Part shown: positions 4,284 through 46,287 of the stretch, piece by piece
Position numbering within the stretch: the first letter of the stretch is position 1
Layout of the letters: each line of letters begins with the position of its first letter
Assembly (NCBI RefSeq): GCF_003991155.1
Contig: NZ_CP031294.1
DNA from: Escherichia coli
GTDB lineage: Bacteria; Pseudomonadota; Gammaproteobacteria; Enterobacterales; Enterobacteriaceae
Strand: one strand, 5' to 3'
DNA: 64,000 nt
Made by a program: the position numbers and the translations under genes
Notes under the pieces: model-generated
What the model saw: the letters and a program-made list of their open reading frames with translations, nothing else
Told to the model about the DNA's origin: nothing
Database searches by the model: none

Positions 4284-5357
4284 TTACTCTTCTACTGACT
4301 CGGTGGGGTTGTCTTTTGCTCTTCGGTCGTCGATTGCCTGCAAAGCCGCAATGATTTCAGCCAGTGGCTTCTCCCGATACATCTCGACGATCTGCGATTT
4401 GGTGTATTTCTTGTCACCAATTTCAACTCGCCCGCTGGCGTTCTTTGGCAGGTATCCTTCTTCCAGCATGTACTCGACGAGCGATTCGATAACGTCGAGG
4501 CCACGAGTAGGATCGAAGTAGAATTTCCAGGTGCATTTGCCATACGGTGGTGCAACTTTGTTTTTGATGCATTCTGCGCCTACGTCCTGGCCGATCTTCT
4601 CTTTACCATCCTTCATCACCGATGCACCAAGACGGATACGTACAGAAGCGTAGAACTTCGGTGAATCTCCACCTGGCGACGTAGTAGGGTCGCCAAACAT
4701 TACACCGATTTTTGTGCGAACCTGATTCAAGAAGATGATGCAGGCGTTGTATTTGCGTGCCCACAAAGCCAGAGTAGGGAAGTTCGCACTCGTCGCACGA
4801 GCCAGTGCCGTATTGTCGTTCATGTTTAGCTGATCTTTGTCTTTGGCAGTGCCTTCAGCCATCTTTTCGAACTTCTCGGCTTTGGAGTTCGGAACCATAG
4901 ACGCAAGAGAGTCAGCCACGATACAGATTGGTGCTGATTCGGGGATAAGCTCTTCATCACGAACCAATTTAAGTATTGTGCCGATCAACTCTACAGAGTC
5001 TTCGAAGGTATCTGGCTGCTTGTATACCCACTGACCGTCATCCTCATCTGCGTTCAGGCCATTGGCGACAGCCAGGCCAACGTCAAAACTGTTTTCATGA
5101 TCGAGGAATACCGCCAGACCATCTTGTTTTTGAGCGGAGATCATCGCTGCTGTTGCAAGGAACGTTTTCCCTGCACTTGGAGGACCGAATACTTCGACGA
5201 TACGACCACAAGGGAAGCCGCCATCGTAACGACCAGAAATAGCTTTGTTTAACGGTGGAAAGCCTGTATCAATCCAATGAGTTACTTTCTGAATTTCGTC
5301 GTTGCTACCGATTTTCTTTTTCAGAGCAAGTGCCAGTGCGGATTTTCCTTTTGCCAT
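4284..5357 (-). CDS. RecA-family recombinase (RecA/UvsX-like)
   Basis: Walker A GPPSAGKT, Walker B-like ICIVADS, RecA-like core of 357 aa. Confidence 0.65.
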   Translation of the reverse strand: MAKGKSALALALKKKIGSNDEIQKVTHWIDTGFPPLNKAISGRYDGGFPCGRIVEVFGPPSAGKTFLATAAMISAQKQDGLAVFLDHENSFDVGLAVANGLNADEDDGQWVYKQPDTFEDSVELIGTILKLVRDEELIPESAPICIVADSLASMVPNSKAEKFEKMAEGTAKDKDQLNMNDNTALARATSANFPTLALWARKYNACIIFLNQVRTKIGVMFGDPTTSPGGDSPKFYASVRIRLGASVMKDGKEKIGQDVGAECIKNKVAPPYGKCTWKFYFDPTRGLDVIESLVEYMLEEGYLPKNASGRVEIGDKKYTKSQIVEMYREKPLAEIIAALQAIDDRRAKDNPTESVEE

Positions 5358-36199: not shown

Positions 36200-36919
36200 T
36201 TAGACCATCCCTTTCTGGTGTCTTCTTACCTGCGACCAGGCGATAAATCCAGCCACAACAATAGTGGCAATACCGAAGATGATGCGTACTGTATCCCCGC
36301 TAGAGATATGACCTTGTGCTTTATCCATAGCAGCGGAAACCTGCGGCATAACATCGGCCAGCTGCGCCAGACCAATACCTGCTGTAACAGTTGCGCCAGC
36401 GGTTTCTTTAGTTACAGGAACAGCCTTCACGGTTTTCACCGGCTTAACGACGCCAGCTCGACGCAGACCTTCCTCAATAACTTCTGCCGCATACCAGGTG
36501 TTCAGCGTTTTTAGTGGACCTCGACCATTCTCGTGGCGAATGATTGCCTCAACCAAAGGTCGAAGGATGTCGTAATCATGCAGATCGATGATCATGTCTG
36601 CGGTTACACCAACGGCTTTAGACACCTCATTAATGTAGGCGTCAGTGTTGTTTTCATTCGGCGGTGCCCAACGTTCAATAACTTCACGAATGGTATCGAT
36701 ACTTGAGCCGTCTTTTGCGCGACGTTTGTCGTGGTAGGTAATTAGAGTCACCGCCAGCGCACGAATCCCCCAAACAGGGTCTTTAAACGTGCAAAAGCGC
36801 GGTTCGTCTGGATTCGCAACCAGACCTTGCCACGGTGATCCTTTATCAAGATTACCGGGGTTATTATTACGAATGCCTCTCGGAGTCTTCATCCTTGATC
36901 TCCTGTTATTGCAGTCCAC
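36200..36919 (-). CDS. Putative endolysin / peptidoglycan hydrolase with C-terminal membrane anchor
   Basis: Position between holin-like and spanin genes; conserved-looking N-terminal segment GIRNNNPGNL; C-terminal hydrophobic helix (IIFGIATIVVAGFIAW). Enzymatic class not resolved. Confidence 0.4.
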   Translation of the reverse strand: MDCNNRRSRMKTPRGIRNNNPGNLDKGSPWQGLVANPDEPRFCTFKDPVWGIRALAVTLITYHDKRRAKDGSSIDTIREVIERWAPPNENNTDAYINEVSKAVGVTADMIIDLHDYDILRPLVEAIIRHENGRGPLKTLNTWYAAEVIEEGLRRAGVVKPVKTVKAVPVTKETAGATVTAGIGLAQLADVMPQVSAAMDKAQGHISSGDTVRIIFGIATIVVAGFIAWSQVRRHQKGMV

Positions 36920-37241
36920 TTTTTACGCCATACGCGGCTAACCCCAAAAGCAGTGCGGTAATAATGAACGACGTTATTTTAGAAACAATGCCGCCAAAGA
37001 ACCCACTTGAGATGGAATCTAACCGGTTAAGGAGTTTGTCCAGATTGGAGTGTTGAATACTATGTTGCGCCGGGGTCATATCACCAAAGTAGGTTTTCAG
37101 CTGATCATTGACCTCCTGGCCAATTTCTTCACGTAGCTCTTTACCTAATTTGCCAACAACCTCCCGAGCAACGATCGCGGCAATACGCTCAACTTGCTCT
37201 GTTGTAACGCCCGCCATCTCGTTCGACATGTTTTCCTCCAT
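36906..37241 (-). CDS. Lysis-associated membrane protein (holin-like)
   Basis: 111 aa with a single C-terminal TM helix; first gene of the lysis cluster. Confidence 0.3.
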   Translation of the reverse strand: MEENMSNEMAGVTTEQVERIAAIVAREVVGKLGKELREEIGQEVNDQLKTYFGDMTPAQHSIQHSNLDKLLNRLDSISSGFFGGIVSKITSFIITALLLGLAAYGVKSGLQ

Positions 37242-37431: not shown

Positions 37432-40400
37432 TCAGTTACTTGTTGCCCCAACAGTACCTGCAAATTTCAGCCATTGACCTGACGGACTTCTATTACTACG
37501 GTAATGATAAACGAGGATTGCGTTTGTAACTCCACCGTAGTCAGCTTTATGTGACGTTGTTAAACGAATTGTATAATCACCGTTAGGTAGATTAAAAACT
37601 TCGATTATAGATTCTGCTAATTCTACAGCACCAAATCCCGTTATATTGTTGATACTGCCAGCATTGAATCCCATAGCATCGCCAAAGCCAATCCAATAAC
37701 TTTTGCTAAACGCCCCATTTGATTTTAGGTGGCTAATGAATGTGGACAAACTCATGCCCATATCCCCACCTGAAACAGAGGAAGTTCGCACAGTCATACT
37801 TGGAAGAGCACTGCTCTTCACATAGGAACTTAGAAGGTTTGTTACCTCTGTTTTCGTATAGGCATTAAGGTTAGCCGCAGTCAAAGTAATATCGGCAGAG
37901 CCATCAAACGCCACACCAGCAATTTTCCTTGCTGTCTGCAATTTTGTGGCAGTGGCAGCATTACCAGTAGTGTTCTGATTACCGGTTGTATTCACACCAG
38001 GTATTGAATCCTTAGCGGTATATACCTGCGCCCACGCAGACCATGCCGCATCAGTGGTATCTCTTCGGGAGCGAATGAAAACCGGCGCATGTGCACCGCT
38101 CGTACCACTCCAGCCAATAAGCAACTCGCCCTCACCAGCAGCACTCGCACCTTTCATGTGCAATACGTTGCCATACGTGGTCGGGTAGCTATTGCTGTAC
38201 GCCTCGTACATTTGAATGCCAGCAGTACCTTGAGCAGAACCGCTTAACGCCGTAACTCGGCCACGAGATACCAATGTATTAATGTTGATATCGCCTGAGC
38301 CATCAAACTTAACACCATTGATGTTTCTCGCTGTTTGCAACTTCGTAGCTGTTGAAGCATTACCGTTCAAACTACCATTTACGCCACCAGTCACATTTAG
38401 TCCATTACCAATTGATACAGCACCGCTGGTATTATTAATTGTAATAGGTCGCAAACCGTTCCATGAACCTAATGTGTCTCCTGATGCTGTTAGCATGAAA
38501 TATGTGTTCGATCCATCATTACGGATAAAGAACCCAAAGCTACCGTAAGCAATGCGGAAACCATTTGCATATTTTGAAATGATCTCGCCAGAAGATGTCA
38601 AACCTCCAGATAATGTACCACCGGTAAGAGGTAATGCACCGACATCAGAGGCTGTTGGTTTGTTTTTCGTGTTATATACTCTTCGCCATCCTGGAGAATA
38701 ATCTGTGCCATTAAATACATAGATAAACTCCGCATTAGTGAGAGCACCAGAGACACTCGTCGTTGTGGCCGTTGTTATACGGATCGTATAATTGTTTGAG
38801 CTACTACCGTTATTAAATACCTCTATAACAGCTCCTGCCAATGGAATAACGCCACAACCAGTTTCACTATTTGGTATGGTTGCACTATTGGCATAGGCCC
38901 ACGCACATCGAGCAATCCATGACTTTGTGTTAAATGCTCCATTATTTTGCAATAACGTCACTAACTGTGCTGTTGTTATTGCTCCGCCATTACTTCCTGT
39001 AGTTAACCAACCAGTAGGAGATGCCGGGCAACCTATATTTGCTGGCGACAAGGAAATATTTGCCGAGCCGTCAAACGACACCCCATTAATAGTACGCGCA
39101 GTCTGCAACTTCGTAGCAGTAGCCGCGTTGCCCGTTGTATTCTGATTACCAGTCGTATTAACACCTGGCAAATTAATATTCGCAGTACCATCAAAGCTCA
39201 CGCCGCCGATAGTTCTTGCCGTCTGAAGTTTTGTAGCAGTTGCAGCATTACCAGTGGTGTTCTGATTACCCGTAGTATTTACACCTGGAAGGTTGATATT
39301 TGCAGAACCGTCGAAACCAACTCCACCGATAGATCTTGCCGTCTGCAATTTCGTGGCTGTACTTGCATTACCATTCAATGAACCAGTTAATCCACCTGTA
39401 ACAGACAACGGACCTGAAACTGTTCCTCCGGTTGTTGGCAGTGCTCCAATATCTGATGGTGTAGGTTTCTGATGTGAGCTATACATCGTATAAACAACAC
39501 CATCGGTAACGCTGGAAGGCTTACTCGCTGAATATGTTGGCGAGGTATAAATAGAAACTGTCGCATTTGCAGTACAATCCCAATGGATATTTACACGAGT
39601 CGCATAATTGCCAATCTCAACGTAAATATCATATGTATCGCCGGATGTGTTGATCCAGGCGAAATTCGTTAATCCGACAGCTGTACGCTTCCACAAAGCA
39701 CCTGTAATCCCTTTGGGGTTTCCATTGCCTGCTCGTAGAACCAGTTCTGAAATGCCTGCCTGATGTGGGGAGCCGACGTTGTAACCAGCGCCACCAATCA
39801 ATGCGATGTAAACGATGGAACTCGCTTGTGGCATGGTAACCGTAGCCAGTTTGAACCACCCTGCCCCGCCAGAGAAAGACATCGTTACTGAATTTAAAGT
39901 ACCAATATCTTTCGGCGTTAATGTGATATCCGCAGTCAGTGCTTTACCGTTAACTTTTCGGTTAGATGGCACCCTGCTATTCGCATTGTCATTGGCTGCT
40001 TTAACTGCTTTTGGCGTTGCGGCCAGCGATTCACTGGTGCTGTCGACAGCACTGCTAAGTTTCACAACACCTTTAGTTGTAAGGCTTGCGTCTTCCATCG
40101 CAACTGCACCGGCAATCTCTTCAGCACGATCAGCAGCAGCTTCCGCACGGGTCGCAGCGGATTCAGCAGCAGTTTTGCTCTGAGATGCTGCCGTCGCACT
40201 GCCTGCCGCCTCTGTTGCTTTCGTGGATGCCGTCGTGGCACTGCCCTTCGCTGCTGACGCCTGTCTGGTCGCCTCATCTTTTGAAGCAGACGCAGATGAT
40301 GCCGATGACGCCGCCGAACTGGCGGACGATGCGGCAGCCGTTTTTGAGGATTCTGCGCTGGTTTCCGACGCTTTCGCGTTCGTTTCGGATGTCTTCGCTG

Positions 40401-41460
40401 CGGAAGCAGACCTCGCTGCTGCGCTGGCCTGTTCAGTGGCTTCGCCAGCCTTCGTTGTGGCTGTTGAAGCAGACGATGCGGCACTTTCTGCCGATTTTCC
40501 GGCGGCGGTGGCACTGGCTGAGGCCTGCCCGGCACTTGTTGACGCGGCACTGGCAGACGACGCAGCCGCTGTTTTTGAGCCTGCCGCAGCTGAGGCACTC
40601 TGTGCTGCTGCCGTCTCAGAAGACTTAGCGTTCGTCTCGGACGTTTTTGCCGCCTTCGCGGAATTGCCTGCCGCTGTTGCCGAGGAGGCTGCACTACTGG
40701 CGCTCAAGGATGCGTTCGTTTCTGATGATTTCGCTGCCTCTTTTGAGGCCGCCGCATCCCGGACTGAGGTGGCAGCTTCTGACGCTTTCGTGGTCGCGGT
40801 GGATGCAGAAGTGGCTGCTGATTGTTGTGACGCTGCGGCATTCGTTTCAGATTTTTTCGCAGCAGTTGCACTCGCACTTGCGGCACTTTGTGAGGATGCC
40901 GCAGCGGATGCACTTTGAGACGCTTGAGAGGCTTTTTCTCCAGCGGTATTGGCGCTTTCTGCTGCTGCGGCAGCACTGGCCGCCGCCTCACGAGCTTTGT
41001 CGCCAGCAGCATCAATCGCGTCAGTGTTATTTTTATACCACTCAACGTTTTCGTTGTGCTCGTTGACGATCTGCATTAGCGGCTTAACGGTTACTTCTGT
41101 ACCGTCTTCACGCTCGATTGTCACCTCATCCAGAGCAGTCAACCAACTGCGCATAGACTTGGAATCAGCCGACATACGCGACATTAGTGCTGTAAAGCGC
41201 GCGCTAAACTGTGTTAAGTCGCCTTCATAGGTCGTAATGATTCGGCACGGAACCTCAGACTGAGTTTCGCCGGTATAAGGTTCTGAGAGAACAATATTCG
41301 TATCGCTTATTACGCGCTTGATCTCATACAGCTTATTGTCGGGGCCAATGACGATCATCCCCGGCAACACACCATTAGCTGTTACGTTCCAGGCTGTCCC
41401 TGCCCCAACCAGAGTATTGCTACCCTGTGTAAATGTGATAGTACCTTCCCTGTACCACAT
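37432..41460 (-). CDS. Side tail fiber protein
   Basis: 1342 aa; long Ala/Ser/Thr-rich coiled segment; five copies of the fibre repeat ATKLQTAR.I.GV.FDG.A.I; C-terminal receptor-binding-like domain. Confidence 0.7.
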   Translation of the reverse strand: MWYREGTITFTQGSNTLVGAGTAWNVTANGVLPGMIVIGPDNKLYEIKRVISDTNIVLSEPYTGETQSEVPCRIITTYEGDLTQFSARFTALMSRMSADSKSMRSWLTALDEVTIEREDGTEVTVKPLMQIVNEHNENVEWYKNNTDAIDAAGDKAREAAASAAAAAESANTAGEKASQASQSASAAASSQSAASASATAAKKSETNAAASQQSAATSASTATTKASEAATSVRDAAASKEAAKSSETNASLSASSAASSATAAGNSAKAAKTSETNAKSSETAAAQSASAAAGSKTAAASSASAASTSAGQASASATAAGKSAESAASSASTATTKAGEATEQASAAARSASAAKTSETNAKASETSAESSKTAAASSASSAASSASSASASKDEATRQASAAKGSATTASTKATEAAGSATAASQSKTAAESAATRAEAAADRAEEIAGAVAMEDASLTTKGVVKLSSAVDSTSESLAATPKAVKAANDNANSRVPSNRKVNGKALTADITLTPKDIGTLNSVTMSFSGGAGWFKLATVTMPQASSIVYIALIGGAGYNVGSPHQAGISELVLRAGNGNPKGITGALWKRTAVGLTNFAWINTSGDTYDIYVEIGNYATRVNIHWDCTANATVSIYTSPTYSASKPSSVTDGVVYTMYSSHQKPTPSDIGALPTTGGTVSGPLSVTGGLTGSLNGNASTATKLQTARSIGGVGFDGSANINLPGVNTTGNQNTTGNAATATKLQTARTIGGVSFDGTANINLPGVNTTGNQNTTGNAATATKLQTARTINGVSFDGSANISLSPANIGCPASPTGWLTTGSNGGAITTAQLVTLLQNNGAFNTKSWIARCAWAYANSATIPNSETGCGVIPLAGAVIEVFNNGSSSNNYTIRITTATTTSVSGALTNAEFIYVFNGTDYSPGWRRVYNTKNKPTASDVGALPLTGGTLSGGLTSSGEIISKYANGFRIAYGSFGFFIRNDGSNTYFMLTASGDTLGSWNGLRPITINNTSGAVSIGNGLNVTGGVNGSLNGNASTATKLQTARNINGVKFDGSGDININTLVSRGRVTALSGSAQGTAGIQMYEAYSNSYPTTYGNVLHMKGASAAGEGELLIGWSGTSGAHAPVFIRSRRDTTDAAWSAWAQVYTAKDSIPGVNTTGNQNTTGNAATATKLQTARKIAGVAFDGSADITLTAANLNAYTKTEVTNLLSSYVKSSALPSMTVRTSSVSGGDMGMSLSTFISHLKSNGAFSKSYWIGFGDAMGFNAGSINNITGFGAVELAESIIEVFNLPNGDYTIRLTTSHKADYGGVTNAILVYHYRSNRSPSGQWLKFAGTVGATSN

Positions 41461-41553: not shown

Positions 41554-44500
41554 TCACAGACGGCCAATTCTTACTCGTAGGACGTTGTTATCGTCATAAA
41601 CGTCAATCCGCTGACCATTTATAACCAATCTCCCATTGCCGCCGCTATTACCGTTGATCTCAAGCGTTCCATTTTTGCCGAACCGCCATCCAGATCTACC
41701 GCTAACAAAATTGGTAGATTGCAGATCGCCTACTTTTGCATTGGTGATTGTGCCATCCTTGATATACGCTCCATTCATATAGGCGATACTGTTTTCGATA
41801 ACAAATGGCGTTGTGATCTTCCCGTTAACAGAGTTGACCAAACCAAACCTGTCCGCCTGAACCAAAAACTGAGATAGCCCAGTGGTGTCAATACCAAGCG
41901 CAATACCGGCAACATACTTCTGCCCTCCGCTCGTTGAAGTCTCCATTTTCAACGTCCACGCGGTTGATACTTTTTTGTTGGTATCAGCAATAGCTGTTGC
42001 CTGCTGTTGAATTGTCGCGGTATTTCCATCCACCTCTGCTTTCAGAGTATCGATTCGCCCACTCAGAGCATTATCTGCCTGCGTTCTCGCTGTCGTTTCA
42101 GTTGTGACCGCCGCAGAAATGTTGGCTGCTGTTTGAGACTCTAAGTTTGTGATTTGAGTCGCCAATGCAGCATCTTGCTCTGTACGCGTTTTCGTTTCGG
42201 TTGCTACAGCCGCTTTAATATCCTCTTTGTATTGAGAGGTCAGCTTGGTGATCTGAGACGACAACGCCGAGTCAGCATCAGTTCGAGCCTGCGTTTCAAC
42301 TGCAACGGCCGCACTAATATCTTTCGCTGTCTGTGCTTTTAAACTTGAAACCTCTTTTGTTAAAGCGGTATCACCATCTGCACGAGCCGTTGTTTCTCTG
42401 GCAAGAGACGCCTCGAGATCATTAGCTTTTGCTGTAAGAGACGTAATCTGGGTAGACAATGCACTATCGGCATCAGTCCTTGCTTTTGTCTCTACAGCAA
42501 CCGCTGCGGCAATATCAGTTCCGGTTTGTGCTCGCAGGCTGTTAATTTCTCGTGAGAGCGCCTGGTCAGCACTTGCTCTGGCCTCCTGCTCCTGAGTGAT
42601 GGCCGCGGATATATCACCGTCAACCTTTGACTGAAGCTGGTTTATTTGTTTGGCTAACGCAGAGTCCCCGCTTGCTCGGGCCTCCTGCTCACTACGTATT
42701 GCAGCAGAAATATCATCATCAACCTTTGCCTGAAGTTGGGTGATCTGGCTTGCCAGAGCCGAATCTTCCGTTGCTCGGGCTTCTTGCTCTTCCTTAATAG
42801 CTGCGACGATATCGTTGCTTACTTTCGACTCAAGCTGAGTGATCTGTGTCGTCAGAGCTTCATCGGCAGATGTACGAGCCTCCTGCTCTGTACTAATCGC
42901 CGCGCTGATATCTCCTTCAAACTTAGATTGCAGCTGAGTGACACGCTTTGCCAACGCTTCATCGCCATCGGCACGAGCGGTGGACTCTTCCAGAATACTG
43001 GCCTTAATGTCTTCGCCAATTTCTACGCGAATTTCCTCAACCTTCGTGGCCATTGCAGACATATCATCAGCAAAGGTTTTCTGTGTTGTTGCGATCTTCG
43101 CGTTATTGACCATCTGCTTGTGCTGGTCTTCATCTTGACGAAGAGCCAGGTCAATATTTGTTTTGGCTAACGCCTCAATGTTCGTAGTCAGTTCTGCACT
43201 GGCACGATCGACCTCTGCAACCGTCTTTTTCATTTCTTCAACGGCAGCGGAGCTTTCCTCTACCGTTGACTGCAACACTTCCAGTTGTTTAGCGTTTGCA
43301 GCATCGCCTTCAACACGAGCCTCGCTTTCCTTAGCAATAAGAGCCGCCGCTTCATCTCTTGCAGCCTTTATTGCCTCGACTGTATTAGCGAGAGCTTTAT
43401 CGTGTTCAGATACGGTGTTTTCGATTTCAACAATTGCAGCATCAGTAGCATCAATTTTTTCAAACGCTTCATTGACCTTGTCGATCGTTGCCGAAACCTC
43501 ACCTTTAAGCTCGGTTTGTGCGTTCTCCAAAGCATCGCTACGCTCGTTGAATTTTATTTCAAAATCCGCGAGGTTATCGCTGAACTGCTTATCTAATTCA
43601 GCTATATCTTCCTTAACGTCGTTTACCGCCCCCTCCAAAGATTCGACGCTCTGGTTGATATGCTCATTTAACTCGTCAACTGCTTCTTGAGAGGCTTTGC
43701 TGTTGATGTCCTCAAGCAGAGCCTGACCAAGCTCGGAAGATGTAATTTTGCCAGTCAGGAACGACAGTACATCGCGAGTTGTCGCCTCTGTACCCAAGTT
43801 TGAGTTCGGAGGACTTAACATACCTCGCTTGTTCGATGCTCGAACCCAGTAATACCACGTTTCGCTATCCCCAAGACCAGCATGTGTAAAGGTGGTGCTT
43901 GCAGACTCTGCGATCAGTTTCGCCGTATCCAGATTGTTGGTCTGGGATGCGTAAACATTAATGTGATCAAGGTCTACCGAATCTGGATTAACCCAATTCA
44001 GTATCACATTACGATAGTCTCCAACGGCCGTTAATGACGTTGGGGCATCCGGCGGTGTCATTGTGCCCAACACCTGATAAACGGTACTGATAATCTCTGT
44101 TTTTTTACCGTTGAATGAAACCGCATACAGCTGGAAGTCGTAGCGTCCATTCTCCGCGACATTAACGATTTCGTATTGCTCTTCGGTTACACGCGCCGAT
44201 TGCCAGTTCGATACATTGTTTTCATCAGAACGTCGCCAACTGATCCAATACTCTGGAGATTTCCCTTCCCATGTTGCAGTCAGTTTTACTGACAGGTTGC
44301 CCGGGCTTGAGAGATAAGTCCCTTCAGTGATTTGCAGATTAGATGGCTTGGAGTAAGTTGGGTCCAATACCGTCGTATTCTGCGGGATCAGCGTTGCACC
44401 ATTGTCGATTGCCTCATATTTAGACGGATTGTTCTCAACAGCGGTGATGTCAAAGCTACCCGGCGTTTCCCCTTGCGCGATGTTAACGATGCGAACGCGC

Positions 44501-46287
44501 ATAGGTTCGAGGTCTGGTTCTGTAATAGTCCAGACGCCGTTCAAAACAGGCGTTTCAGCCGAAGACAGGGCTTTTGAAAACGTAACTTTTGTTATATTTT
44601 CGCCAGTTTCAAGAACATCGCGTTCAACGATTTTGCCTTCCTGATTCAGTATTCGAATAAAGCAGCCGCCTTTGGCTAACGACACAGGCGCATCGAGTGT
44701 GACGCTGTTTTTGGTAAACGCCACAATTCGACCTGAGTTACGTTTGCCTGCGCGATATTTGTTCTGAATCAGAACGGTTTCACCAGGCATCAGAAATGAC
44801 GCGTCTAAGCCGGCAGTAAATGTAATTACATCCGACTCCATTCTGGCGGTATATAAAAGCCACAAACCAACTCGGTGAGCCTGCCCTCGGCTTGTACAGC
44901 CAAATGCTACGACTTCTGTTTTACGCTCACCATAACGGCGCATTGCGTCCTGATCTTCGACGTACTCGATGTTTTGCTTATAACCGTCCTCCTTGTTGTT
45001 GTAGGTTACGAGCGCAACGGATGGGCGATCTTTACGCGCAGAACCTTTATAGGTAAACAATCCATCTTTGACGTTAGAGTTGGTAAACATCATTACCGGA
45101 TCTGATGGGCTATCCTGCATGATGTTAACCATCCCACCAGCCCAAAACACCATGCCGCGGAATGCTCCGGCAATATCCTGAATTAGCCGGTATGCGTCCT
45201 GTCGACTGGTGATCTGCGTATTGATTGCAAAGCGTTTCTCTTTGCCACCAAAGCCATCATCGACCTCTTCGTCACAATATCGACCAATCTGGTACAACTG
45301 GCCAAGGTCAATCATAGATTCCGACACATACTGACCAAGGCCATATCGAGCATTGGTCAGCAAATCAAAGAGAATCCACGCGGGGTTCGAAGAAGACAAC
45401 AGCTTAAAAGTGCCATCCCATACCCCAGCGTAAGTGTTACTGGACTCGTTATAGTTTGAAGGTACTCGAATTTTTAGGCCACGCACCAGATAAGAGCGAG
45501 ATGGCATGGTGCTGCCGAATTGCTCAGAGTTTACCTTCAATCCAACCAAAACAGAGTTTGGATAGTTCATCGGTGTATCGACAATTTCCCCGATTGAATC
45601 CACCCATGTATCGTTATAGAGATACTGGCTACTGTTATCATCGGTAATACGGACCACACGAACCTTGTATGCTCGTCCAGGCTTAGGCAGCTTCAGCTCA
45701 TAGCTACGGTAATAAACGCCGGTCTTCTTTGCTGTTAGCTTAATGCCAACGCTTTTTTCACCTTCAGCGACCACATCTACAAATGTTGAGTCGCCATTTG
45801 CTATCTGGAACTTGTACTCAACAGTCGTACCGTTCGTGTCACCAGTTTTTTTATCTATGCTTCGCAAAGAAGGAAACTTCATGATGACACGAACCCGATC
45901 AGCTTCATCGTTATCGATTGAAACCGTTACATAATGTGTTTTTTTTAACTGGATATTGACGGATTTAGGCGTTTCAACGAAATCAAAGCCAGACATTGGA
46001 GTCTGGTCTTGTGAACCGTCGCGAAAATCCCATGTGATTCCGCTGAAGTTGGAGGAACCGTCTTCATTTACAATCGGCAGATCGTCGATAAAAATAGATC
46101 TTGCGCCATTTACTAAGCCGCCAATTACCCCTTCCCCAAGAAGATCGAGGATAGCGGCCATTGCACGAGAATTTACGGTATCGTCGGCTTCAACCGGTGT
46201 ACGGCTGGAGCTTTTGCTGCTTTTTTTACCACCCGCACCGGCAATAAACAGCGGTAGCTTTTTCTTCTTGAACTGTTCCATGTTCAA
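41554..46287 (-). CDS. Central tail fiber / host specificity protein (lambda gpJ-like)
   Basis: Segments matching my recollection of lambda J, e.g. AFGCTSRGQAHRVGLWLL and C-terminal YVAGIALG...SQFLVQADR; 1577 aa with an inserted tandem-repeat coiled-coil region. Confidence 0.85.
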   Translation of the reverse strand: MNMEQFKKKKLPLFIAGAGGKKSSKSSSRTPVEADDTVNSRAMAAILDLLGEGVIGGLVNGARSIFIDDLPIVNEDGSSNFSGITWDFRDGSQDQTPMSGFDFVETPKSVNIQLKKTHYVTVSIDNDEADRVRVIMKFPSLRSIDKKTGDTNGTTVEYKFQIANGDSTFVDVVAEGEKSVGIKLTAKKTGVYYRSYELKLPKPGRAYKVRVVRITDDNSSQYLYNDTWVDSIGEIVDTPMNYPNSVLVGLKVNSEQFGSTMPSRSYLVRGLKIRVPSNYNESSNTYAGVWDGTFKLLSSSNPAWILFDLLTNARYGLGQYVSESMIDLGQLYQIGRYCDEEVDDGFGGKEKRFAINTQITSRQDAYRLIQDIAGAFRGMVFWAGGMVNIMQDSPSDPVMMFTNSNVKDGLFTYKGSARKDRPSVALVTYNNKEDGYKQNIEYVEDQDAMRRYGERKTEVVAFGCTSRGQAHRVGLWLLYTARMESDVITFTAGLDASFLMPGETVLIQNKYRAGKRNSGRIVAFTKNSVTLDAPVSLAKGGCFIRILNQEGKIVERDVLETGENITKVTFSKALSSAETPVLNGVWTITEPDLEPMRVRIVNIAQGETPGSFDITAVENNPSKYEAIDNGATLIPQNTTVLDPTYSKPSNLQITEGTYLSSPGNLSVKLTATWEGKSPEYWISWRRSDENNVSNWQSARVTEEQYEIVNVAENGRYDFQLYAVSFNGKKTEIISTVYQVLGTMTPPDAPTSLTAVGDYRNVILNWVNPDSVDLDHINVYASQTNNLDTAKLIAESASTTFTHAGLGDSETWYYWVRASNKRGMLSPPNSNLGTEATTRDVLSFLTGKITSSELGQALLEDINSKASQEAVDELNEHINQSVESLEGAVNDVKEDIAELDKQFSDNLADFEIKFNERSDALENAQTELKGEVSATIDKVNEAFEKIDATDAAIVEIENTVSEHDKALANTVEAIKAARDEAAALIAKESEARVEGDAANAKQLEVLQSTVEESSAAVEEMKKTVAEVDRASAELTTNIEALAKTNIDLALRQDEDQHKQMVNNAKIATTQKTFADDMSAMATKVEEIRVEIGEDIKASILEESTARADGDEALAKRVTQLQSKFEGDISAAISTEQEARTSADEALTTQITQLESKVSNDIVAAIKEEQEARATEDSALASQITQLQAKVDDDISAAIRSEQEARASGDSALAKQINQLQSKVDGDISAAITQEQEARASADQALSREINSLRAQTGTDIAAAVAVETKARTDADSALSTQITSLTAKANDLEASLARETTARADGDTALTKEVSSLKAQTAKDISAAVAVETQARTDADSALSSQITKLTSQYKEDIKAAVATETKTRTEQDAALATQITNLESQTAANISAAVTTETTARTQADNALSGRIDTLKAEVDGNTATIQQQATAIADTNKKVSTAWTLKMETSTSGGQKYVAGIALGIDTTGLSQFLVQADRFGLVNSVNGKITTPFVIENSIAYMNGAYIKDGTITNAKVGDLQSTNFVSGRSGWRFGKNGTLEINGNSGGNGRLVINGQRIDVYDDNNVLRVRIGRL

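Follow-up and report, generated by a model that had tools for sequence, protein, structure and literature searches.

Does the repeat family in the tail fibre gene of this locus serve to switch receptor specificity, or is it a structural element at which fibres of different origin have been joined? The gene lies in a 64,000-nucleotide stretch of Escherichia coli DNA (contig NZ_CP031294.1), hereafter the window, which matches the E. coli plasmid NZ_OW849379.1 (110,667 bp, IncFIB) at 100% over the plasmid's first 64 kb, coordinate for coordinate. Among named relatives, the closest is Escherichia phage Cyrano, the plasmid-prophage pLF82, which is one of the SSU5-like phage-plasmids. An intact open reading frame (ORF) of 1342 aa at 37432-41460(-) encodes a tail fibre and houses all five copies of a repeat carrying the motif TKLQTAR. 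In our view it is probable (about 0.72) that the repeat unit is a conserved module, acting as shaft or joint, at which crossovers recur in the evolutionary mosaicism of such fibres, and not a programmed switch. The phenomenon is already known, and the present case adds a well-mapped instance of it in a common E. coli phage-plasmid.

The repeat unit and its copies

The unit is exactly 40 aa (120 nt) long, with three of the five copies in tandem (aa 685-804; 39049-39408) and two solitary. TKLQTAR starts at aa 703, 743, 783, 1039 and 1172 of the ORF, and the consensus of the unit is G-N-A-x-T-A-T-K-L-Q-T-A-R-x-I-x-G-V-x-F-D-G-S-x-x-I-x-L. The original prediction, made from the letters of the window, had placed five copies of the motif at 37880-39420; this was borne out by the TKLQTAR positions, by a DNA repeat finder, which returned a five-copy family at 37889, 38288, 39056, 39176 and 39296, and by Tandem Repeats Finder (TRF), which reported 2.2 copies of period 120 at 39113-39373 (score 298). 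Whole-protein self-BLAST gave the trivial match alone, and paralogy was seen after splitting the protein into two halves. The five units, R1 to R5, and a putative half-unit are the following.

39289..39408 (-), aa 685-724: R1, type A, first tandem unit, LSVTGGLTGSLNGNAS followed by TATKLQTARSIGGVGFDGSANINL
39169..39288 (-), aa 725-764: R2, type B, PGVNTTGNQNTTGNAA followed by the core
39049..39168 (-), aa 765-804: R3, type B, last tandem unit
38281..38400 (-), aa 1021-1060: R4, type A, solitary, after a gp34-trimerization-like domain
37882..38001 (-), aa 1154-1193: R5, type B, solitary, ahead of the C-terminal domain
39904..39963 (-), aa 500-519: putative half-unit NRKVNGKALTADITLTPKDIG, resembling the C-terminal half of the repeat (weak likeness, by inspection, after BLAST/MAFFT comparison with a true unit in the related locus L049)

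The units come in two flavours. Type A (R1, R4) begins with '..VTGG..GSLNGNAS' and is placed after a globular domain, and type B (R2, R3, R5) begins with PGVNTTGNQNTTGNAA. The leader PGVNTTGNQNTTGNA, said to precede each of the three tandem copies, is found at aa 725, 765 and 1154; it does stand ahead of R2 and R3, but also ahead of the solitary R5 and not of R1, which has the type A beginning. Similarly, TKLQTAR is present in all five copies, but the longer pattern ATKLQTAR.I.GV.FDG.A.I does not hold throughout, since unit 4 reads FDGSGDI and so breaks its FDG.A.I part. The half-unit at aa 500-519 had been overlooked. From the N- to the C-terminus, the protein comprises an N-terminal domain, an Ala/Ser shaft, a PF03406 motif, the half-unit, module K, R1-R3, modules M1 and G34, R4, module X, R5 and module M2. 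A larger duplication is also apparent, as [R3+M1] and [R5+M2] are 43% identical (E=7e-31).

The corresponding DNA repeats are not near-identical, contrary to the prediction of near-identical repeats of ~100 bp. In self-alignment, pairs of units in this gene have 55-93% protein identity versus 53-79% DNA identity over the 120-nt unit; in a 77-nt core the copies are 71-77% identical to the reference copy, and the longest in-register exact run between units is 14 nt. The divergence is clearest for R2 and R3, which share 93% of the protein (37/40 residues) and 72% of the DNA, with different codons at 22 of the 37 shared residues. Relatives show the same picture in 120 pairs of adjacent units (medians of 82% aa identity, 68% nt identity and 11 nt for the longest exact run), of which a few resemble recent duplicates, with up to 92% nt identity. 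Relatives yielded 91 distinct units; when 28 chosen among these were aligned, 11 columns showed no variation and 7 more almost none. This pattern suggests strong purifying selection on the protein of the unit, whose synonymous sites would have drifted almost to saturation. Because these sites are strongly diverged, the units within the gene make a poor substrate for classical homologous recombination.

The unit is very widespread. A profile of the 28 units, searched against 1.84 billion representatives of clusters at 50% identity, had matches in 19,462 clusters (E<=1e-3), single proteins carrying as many as 20 copies. By tblastn, the unit was found in fibres of P1, P7, RCS47, Goslar, SSU5 and 9g, as well as in phages infecting Acinetobacter, Aeromonas, Shewanella and Prochlorococcus. 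It could be argued that the repeats are a chance or low-complexity artefact, as low-complexity Ala/Ser sequence occurs elsewhere in the gene. However, the probability of this is negligible: five near-invariant cores of 26 residues at an exact 40-aa phase, the TRF score of 298 and the ~19,000 clusters already refute it.

No model in Pfam or NCBIfam matches the unit, and a DUF6948 match in two multi-copy proteins was below threshold. The unit was first suspected to be PF03406, a fibre repeat of 33-47 residues known from many unrelated phages and from gp34/gp12 (PMC5537660). This was rejected, because the three-unit array gave no match to PF03406 at E<=10 and the single copy in the protein is a different segment, aa ~459-499; the units are a distinct family that lacks a Pfam model. 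A full-text literature search for the motif string returned nothing relevant, the fibre papers of 1989-1994 being outside its reach.

As for structure, the profile matched only two entries of the PDB: phage L Dec, in its C-terminal trimerizing spike (6e3c, E=4.5e-4), and the tail fibre of PhiM1 (8vbx), in which the match falls in an apparently unmodelled part. In Dec the matching residues are 98-131 (NAETADKLSTARTI...SFDGSANVTI), a segment disordered in the monomer that makes up the stalk of the trimer (PMC6449081); trimerization is driven by Dec's C-terminal portion, which makes a thin stalk (PMC6449081, PMC11398494). Dec is nevertheless unlike the units in having a single copy, a 7-residue insertion and the role of a capsid decoration protein, and its atomic structure is only modelled. 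An AlphaFold2 (AF2) model of R1-R3 as a glycine-linked trimer placed beta-hairpins in all nine units at low confidence (predicted local distance difference test, pLDDT, 45; predicted template modelling score, pTM, 0.51), and a Foldseek search with it gave no significant neighbour, only meaningless beta-solenoid matches.

Junctions, copy number and the role of the unit

Variation among relatives was studied in 72 IMG/VR loci together with several phage and plasmid loci, and module maps cover 75 related loci. The top 120 database homologues, nearly all >96% identical, were uninformative on diversity. Across the 75 loci K, M1, G34, X and M2 occur in varying orders and combinations, always with 1-4 units between them; examples of such layouts, with F2 for the PF03406 motif, are F2[RR]X[RRR]M1-G34[R], F2[RR]K-G34[R]X[RRR or RRRR]M1 and N-F2[RR]X[RRR]M2. 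A conserved motif thus flanks variable domains in these maps, as the His boxes do in T-even fibres.

The copy number of the motif, a comparison proposed beforehand as a check, varies from 1 to 9 per fibre, in tandem arrays of 1-4 units at the exact 40-aa spacing; a copy number conserved across homologues, which would have spoken against the original prediction, is therefore not what was observed. Two homologues (P0001 and P0004) are collinear with the window protein up to aa 1198, at the end of R5, and then continue into further modules, with 8 copies in total. Two other loci, L012 and L018, were considered as copy-number variants and rejected; they have three units each, with a motif variant, TKLQTTR, that the search pattern had missed.

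Junctions were defined as the ends of segments with >=92% identity over >=250 nt, trimmed to the point of local identity collapse; there, identity to the relative falls from ~98-100% to <=70%. All five units contain such points: R1 at unit nt 48 (L004/L005), R2 within its TKLQTAR codons (unit nt 58-77; 11 loci), R3 at unit nt 72 (L051) and nt 104 (L026), R4 at unit nt 77 (six loci, Cyrano among them), and R5 at unit nt 1-19 in 8 loci. Six of the 10 junction classes lie within units, which make up 15% of the gene (binomial p=1.3e-3), and 4 of the 10 are at TKLQTAR cores (p=7e-4). Two additional segment ends correspond to an insertion sequence (IS).

A clean exchange is that with Cyrano, to which the gene has 96-97% identity on both sides of a region, ~38005-38278 (4573-4846 in the Cyrano locus L001), the only one where identity is lost. 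In Cyrano this region is a non-homologous cassette, a 92-aa gp37_C (PF12604) domain replacing the 93-aa module X, with its left junction in the TKLQT codons of R4 and its right junction at the first codons of R5. The lambdoid phage phi458, which has 1.76 kb in common with the window at 94.6% identity, and the phage-plasmid CMS-2020a share the proximal part of the gene up to the TKLQTA codons of R2, and their distal parts are different.

Loss of tandem units could be traced as well. The locus L013 and the plasmid CP088392.1 have a two-unit array, the first unit of which is an in-register chimera of R1 and R2. The crossover lies at unit nt 64-75 in one and at nt 77-83 in the other, within identical runs of 7-12 nt; since the switch points differ, the loss must have arisen at least twice independently.

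These data are consistent with a beads-on-a-string fibre in which each globular bead is preceded by 1-4 units, the unit being most likely a thin trimeric shaft or neck, mostly of beta-strands. The comparison of relatives shows that, where phages, prophages and phage-plasmids have recombined their fibre genes, the exchange repeatedly resolves in the unit, because it is the only sequence common to unrelated beads and because a junction inside it keeps the phase of the shaft. Resolution occurs most often at the invariant TKLQTAR codons. Crossovers of this kind swap whole distal cassettes, and unequal crossovers inside an array add or remove exact 120-nt units. The mosaicism is probably aided by recombination genes of the element itself: the Cyrano record (L079, 52241-67874) annotates UvsY-like, gp32-like single-stranded DNA-binding, exonuclease, RecA-like, SbcCD-like and RuvC proteins, so that, judging by the annotation of this relative, the element would have its own recombination machinery. 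A swap of distal beads presumably changes which receptor is recognised, and fibre length is presumably set by how many units there are. According to one paper, little is understood of what SSU5-like phage-plasmids require for their host range (PMC9600943).

It must be taken into account that several points weigh against this interpretation. When the null is restricted to the distal 2.6 kb the enrichment of junctions in units is weaker (p=0.012). Three of the 10 junction classes are outside recognised conserved motifs, at gene nt 1436, 3374 and 3640 (the last in 8 loci, 60 nt past R5), and one more, at nt 1466-1485, is outside the units, just after the ATPKAVK helix motif of PF03406; eight loci have a different C-terminal tip from aa 1214 onward. 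The classes come from BLAST segments, may not be independent, and could have been drawn to the units because conserved sequence attracts alignment ends. Inter-unit DNA identity is low, and the co-localisation of junctions and units could reflect selection for chimeras able to fold and not homology-guided exchange. The fold and the oligomeric state proposed for the unit are putative, the AF2 model having a pLDDT of 45 and no significant structural neighbour, and any receptor role of the modules is presumptive.

Some of these points would favour a different explanation, namely that the units are purely structural spacers, that recombination is illegitimate or random, and that junctions are seen there only because such chimeras fold and survive. 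The low DNA identity between units, with short exact runs and synonymous sites near saturation, argues against selection for DNA homology, and the junctions outside units fit as well. On the other hand, crossovers keep the register exactly and fall in the few stretches where both parental units are identical over 7-12 nt, as happened in each of the two independent R1xR2 deletions, and four of the junction classes map to the codons that are conserved best. We regard this explanation as unlikely, with the reservation that a spacer and a joint are not mutually exclusive.

Alternatively, the units could be ligand-binding, lectin-like repeats whose copy number tunes avidity for glycans, and not neutral joints. 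Their extreme conservation across hosts as far apart as Prochlorococcus and Acinetobacter and their polar, N/T/Q-rich loops could be explained in this way, and Dec's C-terminal beta-helix was speculated by the authors of the Dec study to bind carbohydrate (PMC6449081). However, a receptor binder would be expected to vary with the host, and here the unit is near-invariant while the beads vary; moreover, the units are proximal to several different beads and not at the tip. A binding role therefore seems improbable, and a joint at which fibres recombine over evolutionary time is the preferred explanation. Thus the repeats do appear to be places of recombination, as had been predicted, since junctions and copy-number changes of relatives fall in them, but near-identical DNA is not what drives it.

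Known fibres and switching systems

The original prediction spoke of switching of receptor specificity. Taken as a programmed process within a lineage, this would require the repeats to be part of a shufflon of the P1/Mu/p15B type, of a diversity-generating retroelement (DGR) or of a set of slipped-strand repeats. Two facts from relatives point in this direction: in P7 and P1 the first unit stands just past the cix inversion site (in P7 gpS it starts ~25 aa after the cix crossover that divides the constant from the variable part), and a Pin invertase is encoded near the fibre gene of the lambdoid phi458. In the window, however, the lysis genes directly follow the fibre gene, and the repeat DNA is too diverged for slippage; units of 53-79% nt identity with runs of <=14 nt are not the near-identical, slippage-prone DNA of hypermutable (contingency) tandem repeats. 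In the rest of the 64-kb window, neither strand was found to carry any distal part of the gene a second time, the other 47 kb of the plasmid being outside the search. The annotated neighbours in the window include no invertase, and a scan of the window for inverted repeats gave one weak candidate only, with no inverted copies and no silent cassettes. Switching at this locus by an invertase, a DGR or silent cassettes was therefore rejected on the content of the window, and we consider a programmed role of the repeats very improbable.

The distal part of the window protein has its closest counterpart in P7 gpS, which presents in the same order a type A unit, module X, a type B unit and a Mu-S'-like domain; the annotators of Cyrano named the protein a P1 S homologue. 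Since this layout is shared, the distal half can be described as a P1-S-type fibre without the inversion system. Likeness to Mu is found in M1, homologous to Mu gp52, and in G34, homologous to Mu gp49 and T4 gp34. Unlike P1, P7, Mu and p15B, the window lacks a Cin/Gin/Min invertase, an invertible segment and a gene for a U/Tfa chaperone. It also differs from P1 and P7 gpS in its proximal half, which is lambda-Stf-like and belongs to the lambda-like siphovirus tail operon of an SSU5-type phage-plasmid, and from P7 gpS in its array of three tandem units and its second, C-terminal M-type domain. Lambda Stf is likewise encoded downstream of J, and the shaft of the window protein is close in sequence to the side tail fiber genes of lambdoid phages, but no tfa gene comes next and the distal modules are P1/Mu-like.

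In T-even phages, recombination of gp37/gp38 reportedly takes place at conserved motifs, the His boxes and glycine-rich motifs (GRMs) (Tetart, Desplats & Krisch 1998, J Mol Biol 282:543, cited in PMC10879196). In T4, the duplication of small domains is reported to change the host range. The likeness to the window lies in short conserved motifs beside variable adhesin segments, as sites where recombination swaps determinants of specificity; the modularity of gp38 has been described (PMC3157838). The differences are that TKLQTAR..FDGS is neither a His box nor a GRM, that the phage is of another type, that whole globular domains are swapped and not loops, and that the window is known from sequence alone. 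Horizontal exchange among the fibres of lambda, P2, P1, Mu and T4 has been noted since 1989-1994, according to references given in PMC3945230. The principle is thus known from T-even, P1, Mu and lambda fibres; what is gained here is a mapped example, and a pointer to a very common repeat without a database model or a solved structure.

A broader proposal, which we make tentatively and hold to be possible but doubtful, is that the unit is a distinct, uncurated "universal joint" of tail fibres, shared by phages from enterobacterial to cyanobacterial ones, on which beads can be strung in any order and number, and that its tandem copies have been codon-scrambled by selection against intragenic deletion, with their protein sequence held constant. 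If so, the joining points of fibre chimeras, natural or engineered, would follow a general rule, and such fibres would carry several independently functional binding beads. Tail fibres determine which bacteria are entered by a phage, or by a phage-plasmid able to carry resistance genes. As a landmark, the 40-residue joint may be of use in predicting host-range modules, in typing fibre variants and in choosing the join sites of chimeras.

Other modules and neighbouring genes

Outside the units, the fibre is made up of the following modules.

41056..41460 (-), aa 1-135: N-terminal domain, from its position presumed to attach to the tail, 98-100% conserved whatever the distal modules
40096..41055 (-), aa 136-455: Ala/Ser-rich low-complexity shaft, seen in the translation, with short degenerate repeats D3-D8
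39964..40086 (-), aa ~459-499: single Phage_fiber_2 (PF03406) motif of the T4 gp12/gp34 type (Pfam E=1.9e-20, as an isolated segment), a further conserved motif at which a mosaic junction lies
39409..39903 (-), aa 520-684: module K, globular bead, found with 70-100% identity elsewhere in fibres of relatives, no Pfam match
38743..39048 (-), aa 805-906, with homology to ~aa 945: module M1, like the Mu tail fibre protein S' (gp52; PDB 8ju3, E=1.2e-28)
38401..38742 (-), aa 907-1020: module G34, like the C-terminal trimerization domain of T4 gp34 and Mu gp49 (PF21446, Gp34_trimer, E=5.7e-29; PDB 5yvq, 4uxe)
38002..38280 (-), aa 1061-1153 (93 aa): module X, cassette between R4 and R5, recurring between two units in P7 gpS
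37432..37881 (-), aa 1194-1342: module M2, C-terminal domain, diverged paralogue of M1 and presumed distal tip

The PDB entry 8JU3 is that of Mu gp52 (PMC11821841). The PF03406 motif was unreported when the whole 1342-aa protein was scanned, and it reached E=2e-20 when a 69-aa segment was scanned alone; a repeat-rich, biased protein appears to suppress this match in the full-length scan.

The assignment as a tail fibre held. PHROG places the 1342-aa protein in tail fibre families, it is homologous to characterised fibres (P1/P7 gpS, Mu S/S', T4 gp34, lambdoid Stf), and the gene is 96% identical to the tail fibre coding sequence (CDS) of Cyrano. The lambda-like tail operon runs from the tape measure protein (TMP) through M-like, L, K (C40 peptidase) and I to a J-like central fibre (41554-46287, 1577 aa), which directly precedes the fibre gene. 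This position, and the match of the proximal part to lambdoid "side tail fiber" genes, bear out the original prediction. As the Ala/Ser-rich shaft has 87-92% identity to those genes, it must have been exchanged between integrative lambdoid phages and phage-plasmids. By homology, the protein is a mosaic, in which the proximal parts resemble lambda Stf and the distal parts P1 gpS.

Public gene calls for the fibre are inconsistent. RefSeq starts it at an internal codon at 41016 (1194 aa), and many records annotate just the final 888 aa, plus a separate "hypothetical protein". We favour the 1342-aa ORF because the Cyrano CDS agrees with it and because its N-terminus is 98-100% conserved in relatives. 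The genes 3' of the fibre are a holin and an endolysin in the annotation of Cyrano, and a hypothetical protein and a membrane protein in the record of the window. Directly downstream (36200-37241(-)) there is no gene for a tail-fibre assembly chaperone (Tfa/U), the next genes having no Pfam match and no Tfa-like ORF being present, even though the fibre has parts with homology to those of Mu and P1, which depend on a chaperone.

In the loci L031/L032 (gene nt ~2756-2863) and in the plasmid NZ_CP025883.1 the fibre gene contains an IS element, annotated as IS2, which presumably inactivates it. Finally, the J-like protein (41554-46287(-)) has repeats of its own, ~11 tandem coiled-coil-like units of 33 aa (DISAAI..EQEAR..AD.AL..QI.QL..K) at ~42180-43260, in which TRF detected a period of 99 at 42572-42789; a repeat insert of this length is unusual in proteins of the lambda J type.

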